The position numbers were made by a program, and so were the translations under genes. Positions 10,381 to 47,773 of a stretch of DNA of 47,773 nt are shown in pieces (position 1 is the stretch's first letter; each line of letters opens with the position of its first letter). The notes under the pieces were generated by a model, which worked only from the letters and a program-made list of their open reading frames with translations, searched no databases and was not told the DNA's origin. Source of the DNA: a virus (Duplodnaviria > Heunggongvirae > Uroviricota > Caudoviricetes); the IMG/VR virus record IMGVR_UViG_2667527975_000009, positions 1 to 47,773 of that record. One strand, given 5' to 3'.

Positions 10381-11798
10381 TACTCAATCCTTATCTGGCA
10401 GCCAGACAGAGTGACAGGTGACTTCGTGATAACGCGCAATTTGAAGCCAACATTTTTCCTGATGCGCCCGACTCGCTTCCACAAAACGCGTTTGTCGTAA
10501 ACGAACGGTTCATTCTGCTCAATCATCTGCTCACGTCCGTAATTGATGCCGTCAGTGGTTGCAGAGAGAAAAAGGCGGTCGGCGTACTGCGCAACGCCAG
10601 TTGACGATTCAACCTCAAAGTCAAACACCCTGGCGTTATCCGCTTTGAACAACGGAGTAAACAGCAGGTGTTCCTGTTGCTTGTCGTACTGGCTGCTAAT
10701 GTCGAACTGCAATTTCCCGGTCACGGATTCCAGCTTATCTCCGCACGTTATCTGATTGCCTTCGTAAATGAAGTCGATAGCGCGGTACACATCGTCATCC
10801 AGGCCTGTTTTCAGTACACACCATTGCGGACCATTGGCGCTTGAAGATGCGTCGTACACCAGTACATGGCGCGGAAGATGGATAATCAGCAACTCATGCG
10901 CATCAAATCGCAGCGATTCCATTACACCATCAGCCAGTTCATCAGCAGTGTAGGAGCGGAGAATTTTCTCAATGCTCGCGCTGGCGATTGGTGATACCTG
11001 ACCGGAGCCGATGATGTATACAGACGGCGCACCTGTTGCCGGATTGCTGATAAACGCATAGGAATCAGCAAACGGCGTTTTGCAGTAAGTTCCGGCAATG
11101 CCTTTCTGCACCATTAACGATGGCTGGGCGACATACAAAGCAGCACCAACGGTGGTTGCCCCAGTCAGGGAAAAATATTCAATCGTCGATGAACCAAAGC
11201 AGACGATGAAGTCTCGCCATGTTCCGATACCGATGATGCCGTCCGGCTGAGACTCGGCACGATATTGTGCGCTGTAACGGTCAGGATGCGATTCATCTTC
11301 AAGGTCAGTGATAAACCATGAATCAGTGCCGTCTTTTGACCACGCATAACGCCCACGTAAGCGCGTAATGTCGCGGACTGAGCCTAACTCATACTGAGTG
11401 AATCCACTGTCTGTAGGCCAGTTTGAGACGGTTTTAACCGTGCCATCATAGCGATACTCGACCAGTTGACCATTAACGCCTACAGCCTGAGATGTCCGAC
11501 CATGCGCCATTGATACGCGACCACTTCCGGCAACATCACCGACTTCACTTTCTCCTTTGTACAGCTTGCCACCACACACGCGATAAACAGCACTCTGCGC
11601 CATGTTGTACTCGACGCCGCGCGATACGCCGTTCACATCAGAACGTTTGGCAATGCCCGGGAATGAGCGAAGATATCCGCTGCTGTTCAGGATTTCTTTG
11701 GGTGTAGCCAGCATATTCACTGGCAGATAGTCGATATAGTCGGCGTTTCGGAAGTCTTTTCCGACACCTTTCATAAGCGGAAGTTGCTGAATCGGCAT
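10380..11798 (-). CDS. Tail hub protein, P22 gp10-like
   Basis: 472 aa, the same length as P22 gp10, and in the expected position. Confidence 0.8.
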
Positions 11799-16951: not shown

Positions 16952-18411
16952 TATCTACCTCTGGAAATTGGACGAATTGGAGCCGGTAATGGCTTAGTTG
17001 GTTTGTTTTTGACTACCGGGAATGCAAACGTCAGGGCTAACGCATCAGCGCGGTTTGGTGAAGGAACCCCACGGCGCTTCATGTCATCTTTGGCCTCAAG
17101 GACGATGCGCCCATCGAGCTTAACCCTGTACTCAGGAGCAACGATTTCGTCAGCTGTTTGCTGATCATCGATACTTCCCCCTTCTTTGAGCCATGACTTC
17201 ATTGAGTTCCACATCTCACCGCGCTTGTTCAGCATGCCGGGGTCTTTGGATTCACCCCCAAAGTTAACCAGCTGCCACTTCCTTCCCCACGACCTACCTA
17301 TTGAGTGAATTCCGGTGCCATACCCGAAGTCTATGAACACTGCATCTGCCTTATGCTCATCCTCAAATCCTGCGACGATTTGCGCGAACTTAACGTCGTC
17401 ATCTGTTTTCGGGTAGGTGCCAAGCAGGCGCGCATGAAGACCCTGGCGAAGGTAAATTGATGCCTCATCACTACCTGTGTAAGCAGGGTCAACGCCGATT
17501 ATTTTGGATGCGAATGTGTAAGAGCCGGGTTCAAGCGTGCGAGACATGGCCTCATCCACATATGCCTGAGGTATGAACTGGACTTCTGATGTCGATGGGA
17601 ATAGACCGCGAACACGTACTTTAAAGAAATCGCTGTCTTCACCGTAATCCTTGCGCCACTCTTCGATGAGCTCTTTGTTGGTCATCTTTGCCAGGCGGCT
17701 ATCAATTTGACGTCGACGCCATCGGTGTTTGAACTTGCGGAAGCACTCTCGGAATCGACCGGTGTTACGCGTCGGGTTCCCAAATGCAAACCAGAAAGGC
17801 TCGCCGTCAGTAAGGCCGCCCTCTGCTACTTCCCAAATTTTGTCAGGAACCGCTGAGGCTTCATCGAAGATGTAGAACGGGCTTGAGTTAGCTGCATGCA
17901 GGCCAGCAAATGACTCGCTGTTCTCTTCCCGACACGTCTGGCCGTCACAGCGCCATGATTCCATGTGATCCACATGGTAGATGTTCATGTTGCCTTTGCC
18001 GTTGTTGTACTCAAACCAGTGACCGGTGATGCACCGCTTCTTCCACTTGCCCAGCTCGCCCCATGTTTTGGTGCGAAGCTGTTCAGAGGTATTGGCTGTC
18101 ACGACGCCCTTGCAGAAAGGACGAGTGCTGAGGATGTACAGAATGACCCAGGCAGTTAGAGCACTTTTACCGATACCGTGACCAGAGCTGGTAGCGCAAC
18201 GATAGGCTTCAACAGGTTTAACACCGTCGAAGTTATTAGTCCTGATTGCGTCTCCCCAATCTGTCAGAAACTCTTTCTGCCATTCATCGGGGCCGTCAAA
18301 GCCCTCAAGCTCACCAGTTCCCCAATCAAACGCATACATAACGAAGCCAAGCGGATCGTAAAAGAATCGACCCATATCATCGGCAAGCATTGCCTCGAAT
18401 TCTGACGACAT
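16951..18411 (-). CDS. Terminase large subunit
   Basis: 486 aa with an ATPase N-terminal region and nuclease C-terminal region; sits between the small terminase and portal genes. Confidence 0.9.
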
Positions 18412-18848
18412 TACTCACCTCTCGCGCGTTTTCTGGCCTCCTGAATGCGCTGAATCAGGTTAACCTCTCCGGTGTGTTCAACTTCTTGCTTATCGCGCCA
18501 TTTATCCTTCTGTCGGTTCTTAAGCCAGAAGATGGCGGCCGTTGTATCAGGCGGGTAATACTTCTCAAGCGGAGTTTCGACAATTCTGTTTTCAATAACA
18601 CGAATATCGATGTCTGGAGCCACGAAGCCCATAGCGCGTTGATAAAGACGATCACTAACTTCTGCATCAGCGACGGCCTTACCCTTTTTTATGGACTCCG
18701 AAAACTCAGGATAATCAAGCTTCCACTTGTTAATAGTTGACTCACTGACTTCGAAGAAATCAGCAAGCTCTGCATCGGTGTAGCCCAGCAAGCACAGTTT
18801 GCGTGCCTGTTCGGCGTACGCCTCTTGATACTTTGTTGGGCGCGCCAT
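18411..18848 (-). CDS. Terminase small subunit
   Basis: 145 aa with an N-terminal HTH-like segment (LGYTDAELADFFEVSESTINKWK), directly upstream of the large terminase. Confidence 0.8.
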   Translation of the reverse strand: MARPTKYQEAYAEQARKLCLLGYTDAELADFFEVSESTINKWKLDYPEFSESIKKGKAVADAEVSDRLYQRAMGFVAPDIDIRVIENRIVETPLEKYYPPDTTAAIFWLKNRQKDKWRDKQEVEHTGEVNLIQRIQEARKRARGE

Positions 18849-21642: not shown

Positions 21643-21949
21643 CTTCTACTCCGGCTTTTTTAGCAGCGAAGCGTTTGATAAGCGAACCAATCGAGTCAGT
21701 ACCGATGTAGCCGATGAACACGCTCGTTATATAAGCGAGGTTGCTACTTAGTCCGGCGAAGTCGAGAAGGTCACGAATGAACCAGGCGATAATGGCGCAC
21801 ATCGTTGCGTCGATTACTGTTTTTGTAAACGCACCGCCATTATATCTGCCGCGAAGGTACGCCATTGCAAACGCAAGGATTGCCCCGATGCCTTGTTCCT
21901 TTGCCGCGAGAATGGCGGCTAACAGGTCATGTTTTTCTGGCATCTTCAT
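21626..21949 (-). CDS. S: Holin S (dual-start S107/S105)
   Basis: 107 aa beginning [10 protein letters not shown], as in lambda S. Confidence 0.95.
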
Positions 21950-26996: not shown

Positions 26997-28448
26997 TCAG
27001 AATCCTCCTTTCTTCTTGGACTGCGGTTCCTCGCGTTCACGTCGGCGCATTTCAGCAGACTGTTGGTCTGTGTCATAAATAGCGCCATTTGCCTGAATGC
27101 AATACACCGTGCCGGTATTGCCATGACGATTGAGACGAAGGATTAGTTCGGTTTCACCAGGTGGAACACTGTCATCAAAAGCGCCTTCACGATGGATCCC
27201 AACCCAATAATCGCAATCCTGTTCAATCTGCCCTGTATCTCGTGAGTCACTTGGTAATGGGCGTTTATTGGTTCGGCTTTCCAGTGCGCGGTTAAGCTGT
27301 GTCAGAAGCACAACAACGCAATCAAGCTCTTTGGCAAGGTTCTTCAGTCCTTTGGTGATCATGCCGTAAGCAAGGTCGTTGCGATCGGCCTTCTCAGCGG
27401 TCATTAGTGTCAGGTAATCGACCAGAATCATGCCAACACATCCTTTTTCTCGCTTGATTCGACGGCTTTCGCTGACGATTTGAGCCAGAGATAATCCCGG
27501 CGTGTCGTCGATGTAAAGCATGTCGATTTCACTCAAGCGATTAGCTGTTTCGATCGCCCTGTTGAAGTCACCATCGTAATCACCCTGATAGCCGTCATCA
27601 GCGTCATTTGTCGCCGGAAGGTAAAAAATATTCGGGTTAACACCTGACTTCTGTCCCACCAGTTTTTCCAGTATCTGGTCACCTGGCATTTCAAGGCTGA
27701 ACATCAGAGCGGGCTTTTTCTCATGCACTGCGCAGTTGATTGCCATCTGGCTGTATAGCGTCGTTTTCCCCATCTTAGGGCGAGCGCCAATGACAAACAG
27801 AGAGCCTTTCACCAGACCTTTCGGTGACAGCATCCTGTCCAGCGATGGGATCCCTGTGCTCATTCCTCGTTGTTCGCCTGACGGGTCAAATCGCTTCTCA
27901 AGGTCGCTAACCCAGTCTTCCATGACCTCACCAAATGAGCGAAGGCCGCGACGCGATCCGGTTTTTGCATGGTCTGTCAGTTGCGTGAAAATCGCCTGAA
28001 TAGCTTCGTACTTCTGCGTTGCAGTCATTCCGTTGCGGGAATAGAGAAATTCCGTCGCTTCAGTCATGCGGTTGATGGCGTAGCGTTCCATTGCGGTTTC
28101 ACGAACCTGCATTGCATAGGCAACAATGTTTGCTACGCTTGGCGTGTTCTTTGCGAGCTCAGCGATATAAGCAAAACCGCCAACAGACGCCGTTAACGAT
28201 TTACGCTCCAGTTCATCGAAAAGCGTCAGGCCATCTACTGGCTTTTGCTCCCGGTGCATTCTGGTTATTTCTTCGAAAAGGATTTTGTGTGGTCGGCCGT
28301 AAAATGAATCAGGCTTCAGCATCGCCAGAACTTTCTGGACGCGCTCACTGCTGTCATCATCCAGAAGCAATCCACCAATCACCGCCTGCTCTGCCTCGAT
28401 GCTATGGGGCGGCGCATAAAAATTATCGGTCATCGTGTTCACCCTCAC
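26997..28448 (-). CDS. Replicative DNA helicase (DnaB family)
   Basis: 483 aa with a DnaB N-terminal domain (HSIEAEQAVIGGLLLD) and Walker A motif GARPKMGKTT. Confidence 0.9.
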   Translation of the reverse strand: MRVNTMTDNFYAPPHSIEAEQAVIGGLLLDDDSSERVQKVLAMLKPDSFYGRPHKILFEEITRMHREQKPVDGLTLFDELERKSLTASVGGFAYIAELAKNTPSVANIVAYAMQVRETAMERYAINRMTEATEFLYSRNGMTATQKYEAIQAIFTQLTDHAKTGSRRGLRSFGEVMEDWVSDLEKRFDPSGEQRGMSTGIPSLDRMLSPKGLVKGSLFVIGARPKMGKTTLYSQMAINCAVHEKKPALMFSLEMPGDQILEKLVGQKSGVNPNIFYLPATNDADDGYQGDYDGDFNRAIETANRLSEIDMLYIDDTPGLSLAQIVSESRRIKREKGCVGMILVDYLTLMTAEKADRNDLAYGMITKGLKNLAKELDCVVVLLTQLNRALESRTNKRPLPSDSRDTGQIEQDCDYWVGIHREGAFDDSVPPGETELILRLNRHGNTGTVYCIQANGAIYDTDQQSAEMRRREREEPQSKKKGGF

Positions 28449-29313
28449 GAACTTTCAGGTAGGTATTATCGTTAAGCAGGAAATCAAATCCCTTTTTGTG
28501 CCAGACAGTTCCGCGTTGATGGTTTGGACGCTCTTCGAACATCCATCGGCAATTTTCGCCTACGTAGCTCAAATAATTTCTCCAGTCCTGCATCGTGAAC
28601 CCATGCCCGTCAAGCTGGCGGGTTATCACTCCGGCTTTGCGCCAGAACGTTCGGATCTGGTTTTTACGCTTGTCATTCAGTGCGCGGATTTTTGGCGCTT
28701 CAGGAAGGATTTCGTGGTAAGCATCGACAACATCCTGACAGCTAACGGAAGGTTTTTTCTTGTCAGACTTTTTGTCTGCTGTGGCACTCTCTAATACGTC
28801 AGTATTAGAGATATTATTTATATTATTGTTTATGGACAACCGTTGGACAACCGTTGGACAATCTCCGCTGAGAGCCGCGCCATTACTGGTGTTTGCGTTG
28901 GACAACCGTTGGACAACCGTTGGACAATTTTTTGCCTGAAAATCGTCATATTTAACGATTGTAAACAGGCTAAATTTCTTCCCCATCGAGCAAATATTAA
29001 GCATCCCTTTCGACTCAAAAGTCCGTAATAAGCTCCTAACTTTGTTGTCGGGGATGAATGTTTCTCTGACCAGCGACGGGCGTCCAGTTATCATCTGACC
29101 GCGATCAACAGTTATCGGACCGATATCAGTATTGACGACAGTAGATTCGTGATTAGCCTTGAGGATTAAGTGAAGCCAAAGATGTACTGCCTGAGAGTCC
29201 TTATAGAGCCTGCTGTCCATAAACTGGCGGTGTATAGAGACATACCCCATACTGGATGCCTCCTGATGTTGTACAGGGTTATGCCTGTAATCAGCTAACT
29301 TAACGACGCCCAT
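28423..29313 (-). CDS. Replication initiation protein (lambda O-like) containing the origin
   Basis: 296 aa; the iteron array lies inside the coding sequence, so the peptide CPTVVQRLS is encoded twice. The true start may be an internal Met. Confidence 0.8.
   Translation of the reverse strand: MGVVKLADYRHNPVQHQEASSMGYVSIHRQFMDSRLYKDSQAVHLWLHLILKANHESTVVNTDIGPITVDRGQMITGRPSLVRETFIPDNKVRSLLRTFESKGMLNICSMGKKFSLFTIVKYDDFQAKNCPTVVQRLSNANTSNGAALSGDCPTVVQRLSINNNINNISNTDVLESATADKKSDKKKPSVSCQDVVDAYHEILPEAPKIRALNDKRKNQIRTFWRKAGVITRQLDGHGFTMQDWRNYLSYVGENCRWMFEERPNHQRGTVWHKKGFDFLLNDNTYLKVREGEHDDR
28834..28927. repeat. Origin iterons (GGACAACCGTT in two clusters of three) beside an AT-rich tract
   Basis: Direct repeats at 28834-28861 and 28898-28927, with an AT-rich stretch at 28809-28833. 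Confidence 0.8.
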
Positions 29314-37394: not shown

Positions 37395-37642
37395 AATAGC
37401 GGGTAAAACATTTCTCACATCTAAAAAATACCATTCCAATCAATCCCCTGCCGCTTCAAGTAGATGTCTGCAGGGGACACCATGAACACTTCTCACTAAG
37501 TTCAATTAATTCCATAACTCACTGTTTTAACTGATATCATCTCCTTATACTCGTCCAGCAAAGTACCATTATTTCTAATGGAATCTATACATCTTTGCGT
37601 ATAACATTGTGTATAACTGAGTTCGATCTTTTTTCTATACAC

Positions 37643-38818
37643 ATGCTGCTATCTGACATCCAAATAAAAAGAGCAAAACCGAAGGACAAACCCTATACGC
37701 TTAACGATGGTATGGGGCTATCACTCCTGATCGACACAGCGGGCAGTAAAGGCTGGCGTTTTCGCTATCGCTTTGCAGGTAAGCCTAAGATGATTTCCTT
37801 TGGCGTATATGGCGATGTGTCGTTGGCACAGGCACGTACCAAACGTGATGAAGCGCGTTCGATGTTAGCCAACGGGATAAACCCAAGTGAAGCCAGAAAA
37901 GCAGATAAGATTGCTTTGCAGTTCGCGCATGAGAACAGCTTTGAGTCTGTGGCCAGAGAATGGCACTCATCGAAAAAAGCCACCTGGTCAGAGGGTTATG
38001 CAAAAGAGGTTCTCAATTGTATGGAAAAGGATATTTTTCCTTTTATCGGCCAGCGCCCAATTGAGCAGATTGAACCATTAGAACTGCTAACCGTCCTGCA
38101 AAAAATAGAGAAAAGAGGTGCGCTAGAGCAAACCAGTAAGATCCGCCGCCGCTGTGGTGAAGTGCTTCGTTATGCTGTTGCCACTGGTAGAGCAAAGTAT
38201 AATTTTGCACCCGATTTAGCTATCGCACTCAACAAACCTAAAACCCAACACTTCCCGTTCCTGACTGAAAGCGAGTTGCCCGAGTTCGTTAATGCTCTGG
38301 ATAACTATCAGGGCAGTTTAGTTACCAAATACGCCACGCAGCTGTTGATGCTAACAGGCGTGCGAACAATTGAACTACGTGCAGCGGAATGGGCTGAGTT
38401 TGATTTAGATAATGCCTTATGGGAGATCCCCAAAGAACGGATGAAGAAACGCCGCCCCCATCTGGTTCCGTTATCAACTCAGGCGATCAATATCCTGAAA
38501 AAGCTGCAAGAAATAACAGGGAATTACAGCCTCGTTTTCCCTGGCCGGAATGACGTCAGTAAACCAATGAGCGAAGCCAGCATCAACAAAGTGATAAAAC
38601 TACTGGGTTATCACGGTCGGTTAACGGGTCACGGTTTCAGGCATACCATGAGCACCATCTTGCATGAGCATGGGTTTGAAAGTGCCTGGATTGAAATGCA
38701 GCTTGCGCATGTTGATAAGAACTCTATTCGAGGTACTTACAATCATGCGCAATATATTAAAGATCGACAAGTAATGATGGAATGGTACGCTAGCTTATTA
38801 AATACGACCTGCTATTAA
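37643..38818 (+). CDS. int: Tyrosine integrase, P4 type (second integrase)
   Basis: Start taken at the internal Met (MLLSDIQIKRAKPKDKPYTLNDGMGL...); homologous to but clearly distinct from the integrase at 1..1158. Confidence 0.9.
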   Translation: MLLSDIQIKRAKPKDKPYTLNDGMGLSLLIDTAGSKGWRFRYRFAGKPKMISFGVYGDVSLAQARTKRDEARSMLANGINPSEARKADKIALQFAHENSFESVAREWHSSKKATWSEGYAKEVLNCMEKDIFPFIGQRPIEQIEPLELLTVLQKIEKRGALEQTSKIRRRCGEVLRYAVATGRAKYNFAPDLAIALNKPKTQHFPFLTESELPEFVNALDNYQGSLVTKYATQLLMLTGVRTIELRAAEWAEFDLDNALWEIPKERMKKRRPHLVPLSTQAINILKKLQEITGNYSLVFPGRNDVSKPMSEASINKVIKLLGYHGRLTGHGFRHTMSTILHEHGFESAWIEMQLAHVDKNSIRGTYNHAQYIKDRQVMMEWYASLLNTTCY

Positions 38819-39748
38819 ATCCAGCATGAAACAAATATGGTGAGTAATTTGATACTGTTTGTTTTTTGGCAACCCAGGGAAATGCCTTACAGTTGGTTGA
38901 CTATTGTAATAATAATAGTTAAGACCAATGTTGCTGCCAAACTGGGTTGGATGTTGGGGAACAAGATTTGTAATTTGATCTGAAACATCTAAAAATTTTG
39001 CAGTAACATTTGAACTTCCTCGTTGCGTGTTGCTTGATACAAAATGACGAATCCAAACTGTATTCGCTTGTAAATTCTTGAACACCAAATGTGCGGCAAC
39101 AGCAGAAGGTTGACCACCTCCAAGATCTAGTACCTGGCCAGTAATTGTATAATCGCCAAATCCTAAGTAATTTTGTCCCACGAATTGATGTGCGTGCGTG
39201 AAAAGTTCCGGCCCATTATAATCAGCATTTTTTGCTAACTTTCTAAAGTTATCGCTAATAATAATTAACTTCGACAAAGGAAGAAGAGCGCACTGATTAG
39301 GAAGCATTTTATTATTTAAAACAACATGATAACTAATCAATTGATTTGTCGCCAACAACTGAATATCAGAGTTGGATAATGATGGATTATCATATAGAAG
39401 TGCAACTCGTCTATTTAAGTTAGCATTCAACCAATTATTAATATCATTAATCGTTGTATTGGGCTGAATAAGATATCCAGAGATGATATTATTTTTATTT
39501 GTTAATACACTTGATAAATTTTGATTTAAAGTTAAGACGTTATTGTGTGAAGAAAAATCTTCCTGATAAGGATTAAGGATAACAATTATGTCAGAATTCC
39601 AAACATTTAAACATGTTAATAAATTTCTCGTATTGACGTTAATTGGTTCTAAAATTGGTAGCAGACCATTTAGGCTAACTCCCTTCGCAACGAGGTCCCT
39701 AAGGCATAATAACTCTGTACTTCTCGCATACAAATATGGGCTATACAT
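38798..39748 (-). CDS. Cargo protein B (unknown function; AT-rich accessory gene)
   Basis: 316 aa, Asn/Leu/Ser-rich, low GC; second gene of a two-gene operon, and its 3' end overlaps the 3' end of int by 21 bp. Confidence 0.7.
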   Translation of the reverse strand: MYSPYLYARSTELLCLRDLVAKGVSLNGLLPILEPINVNTRNLLTCLNVWNSDIIVILNPYQEDFSSHNNVLTLNQNLSSVLTNKNNIISGYLIQPNTTINDINNWLNANLNRRVALLYDNPSLSNSDIQLLATNQLISYHVVLNNKMLPNQCALLPLSKLIIISDNFRKLAKNADYNGPELFTHAHQFVGQNYLGFGDYTITGQVLDLGGGQPSAVAAHLVFKNLQANTVWIRHFVSSNTQRGSSNVTAKFLDVSDQITNLVPQHPTQFGSNIGLNYYYYNSQPTVRHFPGLPKNKQYQITHHICFMLDLIAGRI

Positions 39749-39769: not shown

Positions 39770-40651
39770 TCAACAAATTTTAATTTTTACATCCATCAAA
39801 TTCATGATGAATTCTTTTTGCTTTCTTGATAATGGTGTTGCATAACCTAAAACACGTAAACATGCTGGAAGAGAATAAATATAATCCAAAAAAACTTTAT
39901 CGTTACATCTTTTTTTCATAGCAGAGATAAAGTATTTATTTGCTATGTTTAATGGCATCTGCATGAATATCTCTTTACAATATTCATAAACCAATCCGTT
40001 AGGCATATTTATTTTAGTTGAAGTGTAATCTTCTATTATAGCTAAGAACTCTTCCTTTCTAAGAACTGAAAACAAGCTGTCACTTTTAATATAATCAATA
40101 TTTGAATCTGCCTCCTTAATGACACTCAATTGATCTTTTTTATTCAAAACCATAACTCCCACTCTGGGGAGATTTAAAGCACAATATTTACTTGCATACT
40201 CTGGATGTGTAACTATATACACTTTATCAAAAACATCCAAATAATCAGGGGCTTGAGTAATCAACCTTTTTGGTGAATCATACTCTGTCTTAATCTCGTA
40301 AGCTGTAGACGTACCATTAAACACCGCAACATCCACTATAGAGTTTTTAATTGGTAACTCTATGGACGACGAACTTGTTTTTGGGCTGTGCTTACCGAAT
40401 ATTATTTTATTGACAAGTGCTGTCTTATAAACATATTCATTTCTATAATTCAGACGCAAAAAATCATATAATGATGTAAATAAATCCCTTAGTGAAATCT
40501 CATGTTCATTATTATCATTGTTTGAAAACAGTGTTTCATAGCAGTAAGAATCAAAACTCCCAAATAAATCCGAAATATCCTTACCTTTTGCTAAGGATGA
40601 AAAAATGGGGCGACGGAAAAATTTAGCATATTCCTTTTTATTATGACTCAT
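39770..40651 (-). CDS. Cargo protein A (unknown function; possible PD-(D/E)xK nuclease-like motif)
   Basis: 293 aa, AT-rich; contains ...SIVDVAVFNGTSTAYEIKTEYD..., which resembles a D...E-x-K nuclease core. Confidence 0.7.
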   Translation of the reverse strand: MSHNKKEYAKFFRRPIFSSLAKGKDISDLFGSFDSYCYETLFSNNDNNEHEISLRDLFTSLYDFLRLNYRNEYVYKTALVNKIIFGKHSPKTSSSSIELPIKNSIVDVAVFNGTSTAYEIKTEYDSPKRLITQAPDYLDVFDKVYIVTHPEYASKYCALNLPRVGVMVLNKKDQLSVIKEADSNIDYIKSDSLFSVLRKEEFLAIIEDYTSTKINMPNGLVYEYCKEIFMQMPLNIANKYFISAMKKRCNDKVFLDYIYSLPACLRVLGYATPLSRKQKEFIMNLMDVKIKIC

Positions 40652-41332
40652 TACTCATACTCTATAAACATCATGCAATTTGATAAGTTATGACGAATTC
40701 TCACCATCCAGTTACTACCTGTATACATACTAATCAAAAAAAACGAGTACGCAAGATACGAAAGTACTTTTCTTGTTCACCAGTTAGCTTACCTTGATCC
40801 TCACCAGCGACTGGAAGATAGGTAGCAGTATATGTGGAAACCTTCCCCTAGCTAGGTCTACAAACGTAGTTTGGGCATTTAGGCTCCACGATTCACGGTT
40901 TGACACGGCCTGATATCTGCACATTCGTTTTGATATGCAGCAATCGTGAAAAAGGAAAATATACGCTCGACAGACCAAAACGGCACTACACCGCACCCGC
41001 CTGCGGTTTTCATATCACTAAAAATTTTCAGCCTGGATTTTTTACAAACGATACCGCCAGTCCGTGCCAGTCCTCGAGATGTACTGCGATACAGGAACTG
41101 AAAAGAATGAAAAGAAATTCATTTTTTTTCAGTTTTACTGTCCGTCGAATCTATGGCCTGAATACGCAACTCTATGATATTAAATGGATAATTAATTTTA
41201 GGTGTGTGATTTTATGAAGGTTTGTGAAACATGAAGAAGATAACCAGTTGAAAAATAATAATTTTATGACCGTATAAACTGAAATCCTGTGTTCAGGTTC
41301 CGGGAACAGATCGGCCATTCCCGACGCATACT

Positions 41333-41605
41333 TTACCCATTCTTTTGCGCAGCCAGCAGCAACTTTAAAGCCTTTTCCCGTTCCTCGGGTGGAATTGCAT
41401 CAATCAGCTCTTTAACCCTTCCCTGCCCGTTCAGCGCGCTTGGACTAACGGAATGGGAGAAAGCAACATTCATCACAAACGAGTGACCGCACTCCACATT
41501 AGAGCAATAGCAGTACACATCGTACAGTTGTGGGTGTTTCCTGTTTGTTTTACCTATCCGTGCTACTGCCTGACATGTGGGGCAGTACATTCTCATCATC
41601 TTCAT
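41333..41605 (-). CDS. Ogr/Delta-family zinc-finger transcriptional activator
   Basis: 90 aa with C-x2-C...C-x4-C (MYCPTCQAVARIG...CYCSNVECGHSF). Confidence 0.8.
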   Translation of the reverse strand: MKMMRMYCPTCQAVARIGKTNRKHPQLYDVYCYCSNVECGHSFVMNVAFSHSVSPSALNGQGRVKELIDAIPPEEREKALKLLLAAQKNG

Positions 41606-41679
41606 CGTTCTGTGCCCTATACTGTTGCCCGCCAGAAGAAGGGATTTGGATCCCTACCTCTTGTTCTGAACGTGTAACA

Positions 41680-41862
41680 CTGGTAACACGTGTAACGCTA
41701 TTGATTTAAAAGGATTTAATCTGTTACCAGTTAGCAAAATCAAGAGGTAACGCGTGGTAACACACCATTTTTTGTTACCTCTGTTACCAGTCAGTATTTT
41801 TGACTGGTAACACTGAAGAACCGCATCAGTAACGGGTGTTACCTCTGTTACCAGTGTTACCT
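41680..41862. repeat. Iteron array (TGTTACC / GGTAACA, at least 10 copies in both orientations); putative satellite ori
   Basis: Visible directly, for example CTGTTACCAG four times, GGTAACAC and GTGTTACCTC, immediately downstream of the primase gene. Confidence 0.65.
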
Positions 41863-41887
41863 CATAAAAATAAGACTCACGCGATAA

Positions 41888-44575
41888 TCACTCAGGTTCA
41901 GCGCTTCCCAGTACCTGTGTATTGAACTGGTACACACGTTTAAGCCCTATTTCTGGCAGGCGAATGCTGTTTTGCGTCCGGCCATCTTCACCGGGTTTCA
42001 GCCAGCCCGCGTCCACACACAACCTGGCCACCTTACGCGAGTCAAATCCCTTACAGATCTCCTTCCAGCCTGACGGGAGAACGTAGAACGTCACAACCGG
42101 CTCTGTCACGTTGTCTCCTTTATCGACTTTTCTGAATCCCATCATTGAAACAGGCCGGTTCCTGTCGTCATTCCAGTCAGCAAACCGACTGAACTGATTA
42201 CGCGTCATGAAGTCCCGAACCTGTTCAAGTGCCGCTTTATCTTCCTGATTAGCTGTATGGCCCCGGTCAGCCATCCATGCAGCCAGACAGCTTTGAGCGG
42301 CACGAAAGGCCTCTCCCTCCGGCCATCCTGTGATGCCCGCTTTTGTGGCCAGCTCCCCGGCCATCGCAACCAGAGCAAAACGGGTAACAGCCCGGCCAAC
42401 CTGATTCCCGGCATTTTCCGGCGTCAGCCTTCGGGTATACTCTTTCAATAAGGCTTTCGCCTGACTGGTCAGTTCCGGCAGATCAGCGGTCAGGCAATAC
42501 AGCCAGTCGCGGAATGGTGCACCATGATAATGCGCTACGTGCTGCTCAAGATGCTCAGCCAGGGTTTTCCCGCTACTGAAGCCATGAAGTTCTTCAAACA
42601 CGCCATACTTGCCCGAATCGCTTGGGATCTGGATCATTCTGACCTCAACCCCGGCATACGTACGTTCCCCGGCGCTTGCCGCATGCTCTACCAGTGACAG
42701 TTCCCCGGTAGACAGAAACAACAGATTCCAGCGGTTGGTTTCCCTTACCGAACCATCTGTTCTGGCTCTGGCTTTGCCCTGCCCGTTAGCCAGCATATAA
42801 GCGATATTTCCCGCCTCCCTGCCGTCAACCTCCCGGATTTCATCCAGCATCAGCGTGGCATCATTGCGGCGGCTCGCCGTTCCTTCTAAGGCATTCCCCG
42901 TCGCCCGCCACGTATGCCAGAAATCTGTTCCACCACATACTGATGCAGCCACTTTCATCGTCGTGGTTTTACCGTCTGTGGATTCCCCTTTGAGGTGATA
43001 ACCTCCACCGCCGATACCAACCAGTTTCAGAAGGGGGGCAGCAAATGCCAGACTCACCGCAAAGGCAAGACGGGCATTCTTTATGCAATAACGGCCTATA
43101 TTTTCACGCCAGCCCTCTGATGTGCCGCTGACACGAAAATCACGCCCCTGCACACTCGATGTTTGTAAGATGACTGACTGGGCTTCGCGCCCTATCACTT
43201 CATCCTGGAGAACGTAAACCCCGCCGTGCCAGCCAGTTTTATTCACACAGGTTACTTTTCTGTCCGGTTTACACAGCGAGATATATTCCATCAGGAATGC
43301 TCTGGCCATGCCGTTAATGTTGATGTAAGAAAGCCCGTTAACCAGCAGAACGCGGCGCAGTTCTTCCCCGCTACCGCCCAGCATCTCCATCGGCATTGCC
43401 CATTTACGGCTGTTTCCGTTGGTATCTTCCCATTCCAGCAAACGCCCGTAATTACTTCCATCAGCATCACTGGTGATTGCCGTCACCCGCAACGGACTGC
43501 AAATTTTGATATTACGTATCTCTGTATCACCATCAGACTTATTAACCAGCTTGTCGTACCACAAATATTCTTTTGTCAGCCGGAACCCTTCTGGTAAACG
43601 GGTCTGCCCTTTGCCATGCAGCGTCATTTCTTCACGAAAGGCATCTCTCGCCCGTTCTTTCCCCACTTCCTGCCGATAATCATCCCAGTCAGCCTTATGG
43701 CGTACCGGAGGGAGCGTTACCCAGCCATCCACCGCTTTGGCGGCTTTCTCTGCCTGAATACGCCCGGTGTTTTCTTTGCCGTCAGCCAGATCATTATCTC
43801 CGGCCAGAATGATCCGGGTTTCCGGCCAGCGTTTTCGGATCTGCTCCGTCACCTTCAGTAAATTGGTGGCAGCGACAGCCGCCACGATCCATCCTTCAGT
43901 CAGCAGACTGACGGTAAGCGCCGTGGCAAAACCCTCAGTGATAATCACCTGTTCAGGTGTTTCAGCGGGTATATCGGTCAGGGCAATGAATGCGCCAGAC
44001 AGCTGGCTACCGGGCAGCAGACTTTTATCCCCGTCAGGATTGATAAGCTGGCCACCAGTAATATTCCCGGAAATATCCGTCAAAGGCAGCAGTAATGAAC
44101 CGGTGGAAAATGTTATTCCGGCCAGATTCAAAGGCTGTGACAGCAAGGGAAGTGAATACCCGTGTAAGCTCTTATTTGTCAGATAGACCGGCTCACCATT
44201 GCAGGACTGCTGTCTGAGTCTGGTATATCGCTCCGCGCCCGCTTCTTTTCCTGCGGCCTTTTTCCTGGCTGGCAATGCGGGCTTCTCCTGTATTTCTGGT
44301 AATGCAAGCGCCTCAGATACCATCCCGGCGACTTCTTTTATCTTTCTTCCTGTCACCAGACGAACCAGATCAAGACCATCGCCATGACCGCACTGATTAC
44401 AAAACCACGTCCCTCGCCCCGCTTTATCGTCCAGTCGAAAACGATCTTTTCCACCACAGGCAGGGCAAGCCCCATGATGTCCTGCGGACGGTACTTTAAT
44501 ACCTAATGCTGACAGGATATAAGGCCAGCGCCCAATTGCAGCTCCGGAAATCGTGGATACAGACGGTGTTTTCAC
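41888..44575 (-). CDS. Primase-helicase (P4 alpha-like)
   Basis: 895 aa with an N-terminal Zn-ribbon (CPACGGKDRF...CNQCGHGDG), a TOPRIM-like region (IITEGFATAL...AGDNDLADG) and Walker A motif GESTDGKTT. Confidence 0.9.
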   Translation of the reverse strand: MKTPSVSTISGAAIGRWPYILSALGIKVPSAGHHGACPACGGKDRFRLDDKAGRGTWFCNQCGHGDGLDLVRLVTGRKIKEVAGMVSEALALPEIQEKPALPARKKAAGKEAGAERYTRLRQQSCNGEPVYLTNKSLHGYSLPLLSQPLNLAGITFSTGSLLLPLTDISGNITGGQLINPDGDKSLLPGSQLSGAFIALTDIPAETPEQVIITEGFATALTVSLLTEGWIVAAVAATNLLKVTEQIRKRWPETRIILAGDNDLADGKENTGRIQAEKAAKAVDGWVTLPPVRHKADWDDYRQEVGKERARDAFREEMTLHGKGQTRLPEGFRLTKEYLWYDKLVNKSDGDTEIRNIKICSPLRVTAITSDADGSNYGRLLEWEDTNGNSRKWAMPMEMLGGSGEELRRVLLVNGLSYININGMARAFLMEYISLCKPDRKVTCVNKTGWHGGVYVLQDEVIGREAQSVILQTSSVQGRDFRVSGTSEGWRENIGRYCIKNARLAFAVSLAFAAPLLKLVGIGGGGYHLKGESTDGKTTTMKVAASVCGGTDFWHTWRATGNALEGTASRRNDATLMLDEIREVDGREAGNIAYMLANGQGKARARTDGSVRETNRWNLLFLSTGELSLVEHAASAGERTYAGVEVRMIQIPSDSGKYGVFEELHGFSSGKTLAEHLEQHVAHYHGAPFRDWLYCLTADLPELTSQAKALLKEYTRRLTPENAGNQVGRAVTRFALVAMAGELATKAGITGWPEGEAFRAAQSCLAAWMADRGHTANQEDKAALEQVRDFMTRNQFSRFADWNDDRNRPVSMMGFRKVDKGDNVTEPVVTFYVLPSGWKEICKGFDSRKVARLCVDAGWLKPGEDGRTQNSIRLPEIGLKRVYQFNTQVLGSAEPE

Positions 44576-44982
44576 AGCAGCACCTCCTGACCTTCCGGCT
44601 TCACAAATTCAAAACCTTCGGGTAGTTCGCCATCAGGTGCTCCGAAAATAATATCCCGGTAAACCTCACGCATCTCTGTGACACCAAAAACTGACAGGCG
44701 AATATTTTCTGACATAAAGCCTGGTTTAAGCATTTTTTCCAGTTTCTCTGCGGCCAGTATGCAACCAGCATCAGCCCCAAACTCATTCACCCACGGCATT
44801 TCAATATGGTAAATAATATTACTCACCACTTTTTCGTGGGAGAGTTCTATTCGTTCGCCATCTTCAATATAAACAGGTTCATTATGAACACGCACCATTA
44901 AGGAAATGAATGCATCAGCAATGTAGTAGCGTAAGACTGCTGTTCGTAAAGCATGCGCCTTTAAATTTTGATTATTATTCAT
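44572..44982 (-). CDS. Hypothetical protein (primase operon)
   Basis: 136-aa ORF overlapping the primase start by 4 nt. Confidence 0.55.
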   Translation of the reverse strand: MNNNQNLKAHALRTAVLRYYIADAFISLMVRVHNEPVYIEDGERIELSHEKVVSNIIYHIEMPWVNEFGADAGCILAAEKLEKMLKPGFMSENIRLSVFGVTEMREVYRDIIFGAPDGELPEGFEFVKPEGQEVLL

Positions 44983-45211
44983 CGCGCATCACTCCCTTAA
45001 TTGTGCTGGTTTCCTTAACAACGCCATCCAGTTGTTCGGCAATACAGGCCACTAAAGCCGCAGCGCCTTCCGCTGAAACAGTTCTCGCTCCATTCACTGT
45101 GGGCACGGACAAGACCTCTGCAAGAAACTCACTGGCCAGTGCCGCCCGTAACAGACGACTCTCCCCCTGTTCACTCAATATGCAGCCTTGCTTAAAATTC
45201 ATGGATTTCAT
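44975..45211 (-). CDS. Hypothetical protein (primase operon)
   Basis: 78-aa ORF, coupled. Confidence 0.5.
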   Translation of the reverse strand: MKSMNFKQGCILSEQGESRLLRAALASEFLAEVLSVPTVNGARTVSAEGAAALVACIAEQLDGVVKETSTIKGVMRDE

Positions 45212-45411
45212 GCAACCACCTCCCCGGCTCTTTTCACAGGGATACGGGCAGCAAAGCTCAGGATAAATTCAGTGGCAAGTTTAAGGCGTGCAGCATGCTC
45301 GCATTCTGCGATTACACGCACAGGGCGTGGACGGGCATCACGGTCTGTACGGCGGACAGCCAGAAAGACAAAGGTAAATTCAGGGTGAGATAAAGCAGGG
45401 ACTGTAGCCAT
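45208..45411 (-). CDS. Hypothetical protein (first gene of the primase operon)
   Basis: About 67 aa from MATVPALSHPEF with GAAGGAGG 8 nt upstream; the longer 196-aa ORF upstream is low-complexity. Confidence 0.45.
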   Translation of the reverse strand: MATVPALSHPEFTFVFLAVRRTDRDARPRPVRVIAECEHAARLKLATEFILSFAARIPVKRAGEVVA

Positions 45412-45630
45412 AATGGCAACCTCCTTCAGATAGCGGGTAACGCTACCACCGGAGTTCCTACGCTCATGGGTGGTAGCCCAGACGGGGGTAGGAATACCGG
45501 CTCTGAAGGATACCGGCCAGCCCGAAAGCTGCCCCGCCTGGACTACCATAATTCTGATGATGTGGCGTAAAAAATAAAAAAATACAATCAGCCACCACAC
45601 CATAAATTTTAGGTGAGTCAAAGCTGCGAC

Positions 45631-45655
45631 ACAAAAAAACACGCCTAGCGCGTGT
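45631..45655 (-). terminator. Intrinsic terminator or attenuator in the leader upstream of the primase operon
   Basis: On the minus strand, ACACGC-GCTAG-GCGTGT followed by UUUUUU. Confidence 0.6.
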
Positions 45656-45848
45656 AGTATCGCCTTCAGATAACACGGGTTCCTACGCCCGGCTGCCGAT
45701 TTTGCGGCAACCTTTAAACTATATCCCGCGCATTCCTGGTGAGGCAAGAAATTTATAACCGAAAACTGATCATTGCCTGGATTAATTAACGCTGGCATGC
45801 TTAAGCCTCTGCTTAAAAATAGTTCTTCATTTTTCCTGATGCTGTAAA

Positions 45849-45875
45849 CGAGACCCGCCTCTGAGCGGGTCTTTC
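45849..45875 (-). terminator. Hairpin after the 334-aa gene
   Basis: GACCCGC-TCAGA-GCGGGTC followed by a weakly T-rich tail. Confidence 0.4.
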
Positions 45876-45885
45876 TGTCGCTAAG

Positions 45886-46890
45886 TCAATCCGCAAACGT
45901 CAGGGTGCACTCATCAACAGCCGCGTACAGTTCAGGTTCACCGAGTGCATAACCTTCATTGCGCAGGTAGGAATGCACGTATTCACTGCTTTCATCATCA
46001 AACTCAGCACGAAACCAGCGTGTTATCGCCTGAGTGTAAATATGCAGATTATCCAGCGTCGTTACTGCCAGACGCTTACCCGGCATAAACGGGGGAATAA
46101 ACGCAAAGCGGCCAGCAACAGAACTTGTAGCCATCTGTGCCGCATTCACATCAGACGGGCGGTCTGCGGCATTAAATAACTTCAGGCGTTGATGTGCTGC
46201 CAGCTCTGCCCCAACCAGTACAACCAGACGAGGATCTTCACGAAACTGCTCAGCAATAAGCTCTGTAATCAGATGGTTGGCCAGAGCATCAATATTTTTC
46301 CAGGTGCCAGTCTCTCCCAGAGTGACAGGCTCAGAGATGATTTGCTTTCCGTTCCCGTAGGCTTTCGCCAGTGCATGCCAGCCAATATTGACATCCTCGC
46401 CTTTTTTATTGATTTCCGGGTTTGTAGTATTTGCAATCGACACACCGTTGAAACCGACCCGCAGCATGTCCAGCGCATATGCCTGGGCAAAAAAGCTCTC
46501 AACCGTTTTCTCAAACTCATCCGGCACGCCGGTATGGTAAATATGAGACATATCGGAATAGCTGATCCGGGCGCAGGTATCCGTCTCTGTCAGAAAGAAC
46601 TCCGTACCATTGATTGCCATTTTTTTGTGGAAACGGCCACCATCCACACGTCCGGTATACAGTTCACTGGCACCAATATTGACGGCATTACCTGACACGG
46701 CGTTAACATCACGTAGGGTAATATTTTTAATAAGCCACCCGGATTCCAGAATTGAGGTACGCAGTATATTTTCAGTAGGTTCGCTTAATGCAAAGCGTCT
46801 GTTTGATTCTTCCTGATAGTTAGTGCCAGTGACGAATTTATTATGATAACGACGTGCTGCGTCCGGCCTTTCAGTTTTGAAGGCATACAT
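45886..46890 (-). CDS. Putative P2-family major-capsid-like protein (uncertain)
   Basis: 334 aa; the segments GFNGV..., EDPRLVVLVGAELAA and TLDNLHIYT resemble P2 GpN as I recall it. Not verified. Confidence 0.35.
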   Translation of the reverse strand: MYAFKTERPDAARRYHNKFVTGTNYQEESNRRFALSEPTENILRTSILESGWLIKNITLRDVNAVSGNAVNIGASELYTGRVDGGRFHKKMAINGTEFFLTETDTCARISYSDMSHIYHTGVPDEFEKTVESFFAQAYALDMLRVGFNGVSIANTTNPEINKKGEDVNIGWHALAKAYGNGKQIISEPVTLGETGTWKNIDALANHLITELIAEQFREDPRLVVLVGAELAAHQRLKLFNAADRPSDVNAAQMATSSVAGRFAFIPPFMPGKRLAVTTLDNLHIYTQAITRWFRAEFDDESSEYVHSYLRNEGYALGEPELYAAVDECTLTFAD

Positions 46891-46912
46891 AGTTTTTCAC
46901 CTTTTTAAGTAT

Positions 46913-47773
46913 TTAAGAAAAGATTTTATTTTTGTACTCAGTAACCAGATTGTATTTCATTACATGCTCAACATAATCCCGGTCACTTACGACTGAACGT
47001 AATACATAATTATCTGCTCGATAGTACTCCCTGTAAGCCATAGCTCTTGCCATTCCACCGTTATTTAATACATAACGATCAGTTGGAACGCTACAACGAC
47101 TAATAATTTCACTCACGGAATCAGATAAAGACTTGAGTGCATCAGTAATAAATTTAATATCACGGACAACGTCACTGTCATTAAATACAGAAATAAAATC
47201 AGCAGGGATCTGGCCGGATTGAGGAAATATATTCAGTAAACGCTTATCGATTCCCTTCCCAATGTAGTTTCCTTCATCGGCCAGTACTCCCGGCAAAAGC
47301 TTGATCGTGCTCAATCGACTATGTTGTTCATTCAACCGGGAAACAGCCAGATGGTAATACCGTTCAGCATCCGCTCGTTCAGCATGCCCCATTTTATTCG
47401 TTTTGGCTTCAGCAATGCTACTGACGCCGTTTTTTGAGAATGTGCTTTTCCATGCAACTTCCGCATTTGTCACTTCACGCTGCCGGAAAGATAACTCTTC
47501 CTCTTCCTGACGACACAACTGGGCATAACGGCTCAGGAGCAGGTTGATCTCATTCGCCACAGTTTCCGTATCAGGTACTGTTAACCCCGTAAGTGAATAC
47601 AGCTTTTCACCTTTAGCTCGCAGCTTATTCAGTGAATATATTTCAATAATACGCACAATACAGGCCGTGTCGCTATGAGTCTCTTTAAATGATCTTACTT
47701 TGTAACTATCTAACACCGACACATGTTCGTTCTTAATTGATGCCAATTTCTTCTTAAAAACATTGTCAACCAT
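46913..47773 (-). CDS. Hypothetical protein
   Basis: 286-aa ORF whose ATG sits at the window edge; coiled-coil-like central region. Confidence 0.5.
   Translation of the reverse strand: MVDNVFKKKLASIKNEHVSVLDSYKVRSFKETHSDTACIVRIIEIYSLNKLRAKGEKLYSLTGLTVPDTETVANEINLLLSRYAQLCRQEEEELSFRQREVTNAEVAWKSTFSKNGVSSIAEAKTNKMGHAERADAERYYHLAVSRLNEQHSRLSTIKLLPGVLADEGNYIGKGIDKRLLNIFPQSGQIPADFISVFNDSDVVRDIKFITDALKSLSDSVSEIISRCSVPTDRYVLNNGGMARAMAYREYYRADNYVLRSVVSDRDYVEHVMKYNLVTEYKNKIFS

Follow-up and report, generated by a model that had tools for sequence, protein, structure and literature searches.

The DNA analysed here is a 47,773-nt stretch from Escherichia coli (IMG/VR record IMGVR_UViG_2667527975_000009; "the window" below means this stretch at its full length), of which positions 1 to ~37,400 are a P22-like prophage and the remainder belongs to a P4-type satellite island carrying a gene for a P2-family major capsid protein (MCP). 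The capsid gene (45886-46890, minus strand, ATG start) encodes 334 aa, and upstream of it lies orf286 (46913-47773, minus strand), encoding 286 aa, whose ATG begins at the last base of the window. The two proteins have the accessions WP_000270796.1 (MCP) and WP_000228221.1 (orf286). In window order the island consists of an integrase gene on the plus strand, sce7725 and sce7726 on the minus strand, a non-coding block, an Ogr/Delta-like gene (minus), a cluster of iterons, a primase gene (minus), orf136, orf78 and an Ash/Icd-like gene (all minus), a hairpin, and then the MCP gene and orf286 (minus). The gene for a 75-aa AlpA-family regulator, alpA, is found just past the window end.

A first-pass annotation, based on P2-family motifs, had proposed a possible capsid gene of this family inside a P4-like element, and our evidence supports that proposal. 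The motifs it named are present in the translation as VGFNGVS (residues 145-151), EDPRLVVLVG (218-227) and LDNLHIY (279-285), and they align with IGFNGVS, EDPDLVVVCG and LDNLSIY of solved P2-family capsid proteins. A Pfam search matched the protein, far above what chance would give, to PF05125 (Phage_cap_P2) over positions 16-326 of the 327 in the profile, at an E-value of 9.5e-67 and a score of 225.8 bits where the cutoff is 27. The match to PHROG 70, "major head protein", had an E-value of 1.8e-86, and phmmer aligned the protein with P2 gpN (7jw1_A) at 2.7e-16. The AlphaFold model (mean predicted local distance difference test score, pLDDT, 83.5) had as its best Foldseek match gpN in the P4 procapsid 7JW1 (E 4.3e-23, template modelling score 0.70-0.78), and also matched the phiRSA1 capsid 7OZ4 (E 6.6e-22) and the procapsid chains of SaPIbov5, 7RWZ (E 2e-8). 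From the profile, sequence and fold matches we therefore identify a full-length P2-family capsid protein with the HK97 fold, which agrees with the RefSeq label already attached to the gene, "P2 family phage major capsid protein". The part of the earlier proposal that had to be corrected is the source lineage, which is not P2 itself but ESSI-2-like phages; the protein is 48% identical to the MCP of phage ESSI2_ev015 and ~25% identical to gpN of P2 and 186.

The 286-aa protein had been left unassigned, and it stayed so when searched against Pfam, NCBIfam and PADLOC, none of which held a matching family. Its AlphaFold model (pLDDT 87.6) is entirely helical, an all-alpha coiled coil. Clustering placed it in a satellite-specific family of 105 clusters at 90% identity, all of them unnamed, and of 53 representatives at 50% identity, nearly all of ~280-300 aa; the exceptions are short fragments and one weak match of 886 aa. 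A homologue lies upstream of the MCP gene in every satellite locus for which sequence is available there, which is the slot taken by the gpO scaffold gene in phages. No relationship to Sid, Psu or a scaffold was detected. Alignment of the family by hhalign gave probabilities of 0.4% against Sid, 1.3% against Psu and 2% against an alignment of 53 phage scaffolds, while Pfam gave no match to the gpO scaffold family PF05929 and BLASTP against the ev015 and SI7 scaffolds gave only E-values above 1. Reasoning from its position, its co-inheritance with the capsid gene and its helical character, we propose that orf286 encodes a scaffold or size-determining partner of the MCP.

To place the two genes in context, one genome per species was scanned with the MCP alignment, and the loci found (L001 onwards) were then searched by tblastn with the island and phage proteins. 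The loci divide cleanly into satellites, with an MCP 50-99% identical to the query, and complete Peduoviridae prophages, at 44-52%. There are ~23 satellite loci in ~15 genera of Enterobacterales, and they share one gene order: alpA/int, orf286, MCP, ash, alpha, delta. The genera are Escherichia, Citrobacter, Enterobacter, Franconibacter, Siccibacter, Kosakonia, Phytobacter, Intestinirhabdus, Buttiauxella, Erwinia ("Ca. Erwinia dacicola"), Brenneria, Pectobacterium, Yersinia, Rahnella, Xenorhabdus and Proteus. Portal, terminase, full scaffold, adaptor, sheath and tube genes were absent by tblastn from L001, L004-L026 and L082 and all present in the phage loci L027-L083, where the order is portal, terL, scaffold, MCP, terS, adaptor, sheath and tube. 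Homologues of gpM and gpL were likewise absent from the island and the related satellite loci.

A neighbour-joining tree groups all 23 satellite MCPs in one clade, which sits on a long stem inside the MCPs of ESSI-2/ev015-like Peduoviridae. Between satellites the median identity is 56% (pairwise range 47-98%), against 46% for satellite-phage and 72% for phage-phage comparisons, and no more than 14 alignment columns distinguish every satellite MCP from every phage MCP. Satellite MCP length is constant at 330-342 aa. The ratio of nonsynonymous to synonymous substitution rates (dN/dS), taken over satellite pairs with unsaturated dS, was 0.07-0.17 for the MCP, 0.18-0.27 for orf286 and 0.03-0.10 for the alpha primase gene; two pairs involving L008 were left out as implausible, probably because of an ORF-extraction error. 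Both the MCP and orf286 are under purifying selection.

These comparisons bear on the simplest alternative, that the island is a decaying mosaic in which the capsid gene, with no present function, is what remains of a Peduoviridae prophage after recombination with a P4-like island. Such an origin would be in keeping with a location at a tRNA hotspot beside another prophage and with E. coli copies that are almost clonal. However, the same two-gene module sits in the same place in ~23 loci of ~15 genera, with intact frames, purifying selection and a single MCP clade, there are no other head or tail remnants, and satellite MCP identities of 47-98% rule out the recent spread of one sequence; we regard decay as extremely improbable. 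By the same comparisons, the MCP-bearing satellites are a conserved lineage and not a remnant, and the tree topology indicates that the MCP was gained by a single ancient capture from ESSI-2/ev015-like Peduoviridae.

Behind the MCP gene, 11 of the satellites, which belong to the Yersiniaceae, Pectobacteriaceae and Morganellaceae, have a conserved ORF that encodes 169-177 aa (L016, L017, L018 at 10978-11499, L019, L020, L022-L026 and L082). Its product corresponds only to the N-terminal serine-peptidase half of gpO, matching PF05929 over positions 3-139 of 268 (E 1.5e-40) with the conserved motifs ATEGxTxDGR, IWEEH and LAVTDSPAS, and the C-terminal scaffold half of gpO is absent from it. No such ORF was found in the Enterobacteriaceae clade, including the window.

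The satellites differ among themselves in their integration genes. In one arrangement (L005, L006, L008, L010, L016, L019, L021) the integrase is ~60% identical and encoded upstream of orf286 on the same strand, and no AlpA match was found in these loci. In the other (L001, L007, L009, L018, L020, L024) it is 71-89% identical, lies past the hotspot and delta, and is encoded on the opposite strand, with alpA present. The two arrangements suggest that integration modules have been swapped within the family.

The non-coding block of the island contains a putative cos packaging site (40970-41137), which we located through conservation among the satellites followed by a search of annotated phages. 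This stretch of ~165 nt between the hotspot and delta is 68-81% conserved in every satellite, even where the satellite proteins are only ~50% identical. The 22-mer GCACTACACCGCACCCGCCTGC (40983-41004) inside this stretch is unchanged in most satellites and has one mismatch in a few; TTTCAG/CTGAAA repeats flank it on one side. The reverse complement of the 22-mer, GCAG-GCGGGTGCGGTGTAG-TGC, is exactly the joined termini of Cronobacter phage ESSI-2, whose record starts with GCGGGTGCGGTGTAGTGCC and ends with CTTGCAGGCGGGTGCGGTGTAG, with the same 15 nt, GCGGGTGCGGTGTAG, at both ends. A further ~150 nt on the right-end side of ESSI-2, with TTTCAG/CTGAAA repeats, is ~75% identical to the satellite block. 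In the annotated-phage search the block matched the linear record ends of ESSI-2 and Escherichia phage ESSI2_ev015, and it fell within ~50 bp of the record end of ev129 and ~1 kb of that of ev040. At least 120 IMG/VR contigs also contain the exact 22-mer, and many of these are ~30 kb long and have ev015-like sheath and tube genes. A search of the window that allowed up to 3 mismatches did not find the P2/P4-type cos, GGCGAGGCGGGGAAAGCAC. We thus regard the satellite cos as putatively that of the ESSI-2/ev015-like Peduoviridae (Seongnamvirus, Quadragintavirus and relatives).

A whole-element blastn against the phage loci gave coding similarity only (MCP and delta/ogr) and missed the cos because the phage cos lay outside the ±10 kb windows around those loci. 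In ESSI-2-like Peduoviridae the cos is found between int and the last tail gene, whereas in P2 it is beside the portal gene; in ESSI-2 (L206) the stretches concerned are 1-198 and 27869-28765. Two other candidates arose in the cos searches and were set aside. A look-alike of the 22-mer between terS and the adaptor gene of some phages has 4-5 mismatches, lies in a GC-rich intergenic stretch and is probably due to chance. "Salmonella phage S.Kent 1-2-1" (OR850886, L205; 7.8 kb, unannotated) was considered as a packaged satellite and turned out to be a cos-matching fragment of an ESSI-2-like phage, with tail genes up to the cos.

Since the satellites share the cos of ESSI-2-like phages and not that of P2, ESSI-2-like phages are probably the helpers, and the phage lineage with the shared cos is also the lineage from which the satellite MCP derives. 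P2 itself was rejected as the helper, there being no P2/P4 cos in the window and an MCP only ~25% identical to P2/186 gpN. ESSI-2-like phage genomes measure 28,765-30,927 bp, giving an island-to-phage size ratio of 0.36-0.38, close to that of P4 to P2. At least six assemblies contain both a satellite and an ESSI-2-like prophage (L016/L028, L008/L040, L025/L054, L013/L048, L019/L034 and L012/L051).

The rest of the island is built from P4-type genes. The tyrosine integrase (37595-38818, plus strand) carries the Pfam domains Arm-DNA-bind_3, Phage_int_M and Phage_integrase and is 40% identical to P4 Int. It is followed by a cargo or defence hotspot holding sce7725 (38798-39748, minus; named in RefSeq, with no library match) and sce7726 (39770-40651, minus; named in RefSeq, PADLOC "cII" model at E 1.2e-18), and sce7726 is 39% identical to part of P4 cII. 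The P4 hotspot sits between int and cos, as the sce7725/sce7726 pair does here (PMC13586616). The cargo at this position varies among satellites, with L018, for example, having a 519-aa ORF at 16952-18511. Beyond the cos lies a gene for an Ogr/Delta-like zinc finger protein, a putative late-gene activator (41333-41605, minus; PF04606, E 5e-14), 45-57% identical to the Ogr-like gene product encoded next to the portal gene in ESSI-2-like prophages.

Between delta and alpha, a dense cluster of ~12 iterons, GGTAACAC / GTGTTACC, in both orientations (41640-41870) holds two perfect 19-nt repeats. Because it is directly downstream of alpha, like crr in P4, we read it as probably the replication origin or crr. 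The alpha-like primase/helicase (41888-44575, minus; 895 aa) contains the Pfam domains Zn_Ribbon_Prim, Toprim_3 and DUF927, and over its N-terminal 311 aa it shares 38% identity with P4 alpha. Two further genes of the alpha operon, orf136 (44572-44982, minus; PHROG 5991) and orf78 (44975-45211, minus; PHROG 38507), belong to families with no assigned function and are kept in related satellites. The Ash/Icd-like protein of 196 aa (45208-45798, minus; PF10554 Phage_ASH, E 3e-32; NCBIfam Icd-like) is 58% identical to the P4 "cI" ORF, and by this similarity its gene corresponds to the P4 cI/immunity region. Immunity in the P4 cI region is RNA-based. The Ash/Icd-like ORF (45208-45798) overlaps a long antisense ORF.

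In the Enterobacteriaceae clade, including the window, only 87 nt separate the MCP gene from ash, and this gap contains a GC-rich hairpin read from the sequence, AGACCCGC, a 6-nt loop and GCGGGTCT (45851-45872, minus), 14 nt downstream of the MCP stop. The hairpin may serve to attenuate or terminate transcription running from the capsid genes into ash; as a terminator, it failed a consensus terminator scan and its minus-strand T-tract is weak. At the other end, the AlpA regulator past the window is 46% identical to P4 ORF88/Vis and matches Pfam Phage_AlpA. The proteins by which P4 takes over capsids were sought in the island by tblastn, with nothing for Sid at E<1 and a best E-value of 0.55 for Psu, and neither was found in 29 related loci at E<1e-3. 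P4 epsilon had no significant match in the island (E 0.019). SatelliteFinder takes int, psu, delta, sid, alpA, ash/epsilon and alpha as the core genes of P4-like elements (PMC13586616). By homologue the island has five of these seven, and on that basis it is a P4-related satellite without the P4 capsid-hijacking proteins.

Bringing these observations together, we think it rather probable that the region is the helper-exploitation module of a distinct P4-related satellite lineage, in which the MCP and orf286 stand in place of Sid and Psu and the helpers are ESSI-2-like phages. In the mechanism we envisage, helper infection or induction would lead to expression of orf286 and the satellite MCP from the AlpA-led operon, and orf286 would act as a replacement scaffold or size determinant guiding the satellite MCP, which would assemble around the helper portal or co-assemble with the helper MCP. 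A small, T=4-like shell would fit the 11.0-kb satellite and exclude the helper genome. Helper terminase would cut and package satellite concatemers at the shared cos, and the helper would supply terminase, portal, head-completion proteins, tail and lysis. That the MCP is present in particles, that the capsids are small, what role orf286 has and which phage mobilises the island are all things we infer from the comparisons of genes and sites given above. A more specific form of this proposal is that these are shell-forming satellites, in which the captured, neofunctionalised MCP and the scaffold-like orf286 intrinsically specify a small capsid on the helper portal, targeting ESSI-2-like Peduoviridae across the Enterobacterales. 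We put this forward tentatively, its chances being a little short of even.

The main rival comes from the satellite SaPIbov5, whose helper is the cos phage phi12 and whose Ccm, an MCP homologue with the HK97 fold, redirects assembly to small T=4 capsids (PMC6893505). By analogy, the satellite MCP would be unable to form a shell alone and would instead enter the helper MCP lattice and bias it to small capsids, perhaps at particular sites such as the pentamers or a portal-proximal nucleus, with orf286 as an accessory, for example a Psu-like decoration or stabilising protein. Ccm is itself an MCP homologue that still requires the helper capsid protein (PMC6893505), the satellites here have no portal, and the E. 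coli clade has no scaffold or protease either. The fact that just 14 columns separate satellite from phage MCPs also suggests most interfaces may stay compatible. However, a median satellite-phage identity of ~46% is lower than expected of interlocking subunits, and the consistent retention of a second co-inherited protein together with an ancestral protease resembles a self-contained shell module. We consider Ccm-like co-assembly unlikely.

A second rival would have the island only interfere with the helper. The MCP homologue and orf286 would be dominant-negative poisons of helper capsid assembly that shield the population of host cells, and the island would be packaged as multimers in full-size helper capsids or would no longer be mobile. 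Satellites commonly interfere with their helpers, this island holds a defence hotspot, and three 11.0-kb copies would roughly fill a 29-31 kb head; there is also a precedent in EcCICFT073, which despite encoding a capsid homologue goes into capsids of full size (PMC6893505). Set against this are a full-length MCP with an intact HK97 fold, a dN/dS of ~0.1 over long divergence and a conserved cos, all of which fit a structural role linked to transfer, and the protease domain that half of the lineage retains would not be needed by a pure poison. We judge the interference explanation quite improbable.

Several observations weigh against a capsid-forming module mobilised by ESSI-2-like helpers, and they should be considered together. 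On NCBIfam TIGR01551 the MCP scored 204.6 bits, under the equivalog cutoff of 219.65, so by its profile scores the protein is a P2-family (PF05125) member and not an "equivalog" by that model. The E. coli clade has no protease ORF, so any maturation of the MCP there would have to come from the helper. For orf286, no similarity to any scaffold, to Sid or to Psu was detected, and its proposed role is argued from position, co-inheritance and helical character. Among E. coli, 421 of the 444 island copies are at least 99% identical, near-identity that we take as clonal inheritance and not recent mobility, and ESSI-2-like prophages are rare, occurring in 29 of 5426 complete genomes at ≥80% coverage. 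The co-resident satellite-phage pairs showed no extra shared non-coding similarity in 20-kb windows, although the phage cos lies outside those windows. Regulation adds two further points. A dyad, TTCGG-N13-CCGAA, conserved in the terL-scaffold intergenic region of ESSI-2-like phages (L002, L035 and others) and probably their late-activator site, has no counterpart in the satellites; upstream of alpA, only the E. coli and Citrobacter copies have a TGT-N12-ACA site.

We had also looked for a late promoter shared between satellites and phages, and this candidate was dropped, since TGT-N12-ACA is conserved in neither group and the phage dyad is missing from the satellites.

Comparison with known systems helps to place the lineage. 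Like P4, the island is small (11.0 kb versus 11.6 kb) and integrates at a tRNA gene by means of a P4-type integrase; it has the AlpA/Vis regulator, the Ash/cI region, an alpha primase domain followed by iterons, and the Ogr/Delta zinc finger; and its cargo hotspot, with the cII-like sce7726, adjoins the cos, whose sharing points to a Peduoviridae helper. It differs from P4 in having no Sid or Psu, in a cos of ESSI-2 type instead of P2 type, in a delta gene downstream of alpha (in P4 delta belongs to the sid-delta-psu operon), in the DUF927 C-terminal part of alpha, and in the insertion of the MCP gene and orf286 between alpA and ash. Type C P4-like subfamilies of Escherichia and Salmonella lack two core genes, and De Sousa et al. 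left open whether other components make up for the missing functions (PMC10085698). The MCP-bearing lineage may be among those Type C elements. According to Dokland's review, P4-like elements gained size redirection independently, as phages have no Sid-like proteins (PMC6893505); a P4-type element here took the phage's own capsid gene instead.

In its function the element would be most like Ccm of SaPIbov5, as in both cases a satellite gene is homologous to the MCP of the probable helper and lies in a satellite sharing the cos of that phage. SaPIbov5, however, is an unrelated Gram-positive phage-inducible chromosomal island (PICI) with an unrelated MCP lineage, Ccm is 23% identical to the helper capsid protein compared with ~46% for the satellite MCP and its probable helpers, and neither an orf286-like partner nor a protease-only gene has been described for Ccm. 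The capsid-forming PICIs (cf-PICIs), such as EcCIEDL933 and PmCI172, encode their own major capsid protein and take other virion parts from the helper (PMC10085698). The island resembles them in having its own capsid gene. Unlike it, they also encode the portal, protease, head-tail adaptor and connector, TerS and TerL, and steal only tails; the island has the capsid gene alone on a backbone that is P4-type and not PICI-type. Having no genes for portal, connector or terminase, it would have to draw on the helper for portal, terminase and head-completion proteins. The two genes are also reminiscent of the gpO/gpN part of the P2 head module, with an MCP homologue and an O-N order mimicked by orf286 in the gpO position. 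They differ from the P2/ESSI-2 module in that the flanking Q, P, M and L are missing, the genes are not in a Q-P-O-N-M-L cluster and the scaffold half of gpO is missing.

The boundaries of the island were defined in strain SA186, where it lies alone between tRNA-Arg and dsdC. There a 20-nt direct repeat, ATTCCTGCAGGGGACACCAT, occurs once at the 3′ end of tRNA-Arg and again 11,034 bp further on, and we took this distance as the island length. The window has a single, partial att copy, CTGCAGGGGACACCAT (37468-37483), at the junction of the P22-like prophage and the satellite, which forms the left boundary of the island. At ≥80% coverage the island region is present in 444 complete E. coli genomes, ~8% of the 5426 in the collection searched. 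We take most of these copies to come from one heavily sequenced clone, going by strain names probably sequence type ST131.

The neighbouring P22-like prophage (window 1-37400) looks complete, with tailspike, portal, gp10, P22-type capsid and ejection proteins, and it and the satellite are integrated one after the other at the tRNA-Arg gene argW. Positions 1-24000 of the window were found at ≥80% coverage in only 3 of the 5426 E. coli genomes. On the other side, ~500 nt past the window end and between alpA and attR, locus L001 has a perfect pentanucleotide microsatellite, (GGGCT)n / (CCCAG)n, of ~18 units (21793-21885). It is located upstream of the alpA-orf286-MCP operon and could be a phase-variable spacer for the promoter region of that operon.

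A search of the full-text literature found no description of MCP-bearing P4-like satellites, of their cos or of their helper link; most subscription journals lay outside that search, so a prior description is possible. The capsid gene call was already known through RefSeq, and the satellite subfamily, its cos and its link to a helper appear undescribed, as we found no paper on them.

Capsid-size piracy is a textbook case of molecular parasitism, and for the P4 family the only solution known to us is that of Sid and Psu. A 2023 survey stated that no satellites other than cf-PICIs were known to take over only a part of the virion (PMC10085698). A P4-type lineage with its own capsid protein and no portal or terminase would, if our reading is true, be a third hijacking strategy, and a shell-forming one would be intermediate between P4, which steals everything and reshapes it, and the cf-PICIs, which steal tails only. 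It would also explain the Type C P4-like elements without Sid/Psu functions. The MCP, orf286 and protease-only set amounts to a small natural experiment on what sets the T number of HK97-fold shells, and, given the defence hotspot on the island, how mobile it is bears on the dissemination of defence genes. From the shared cos, ESSI2_ev015, ev040, ev129 and ESSI-2 are predicted as helpers, all of which already exist as isolates. More broadly, these satellites would mean that one satellite backbone can swap its helper-exploitation module on changing helper lineage.

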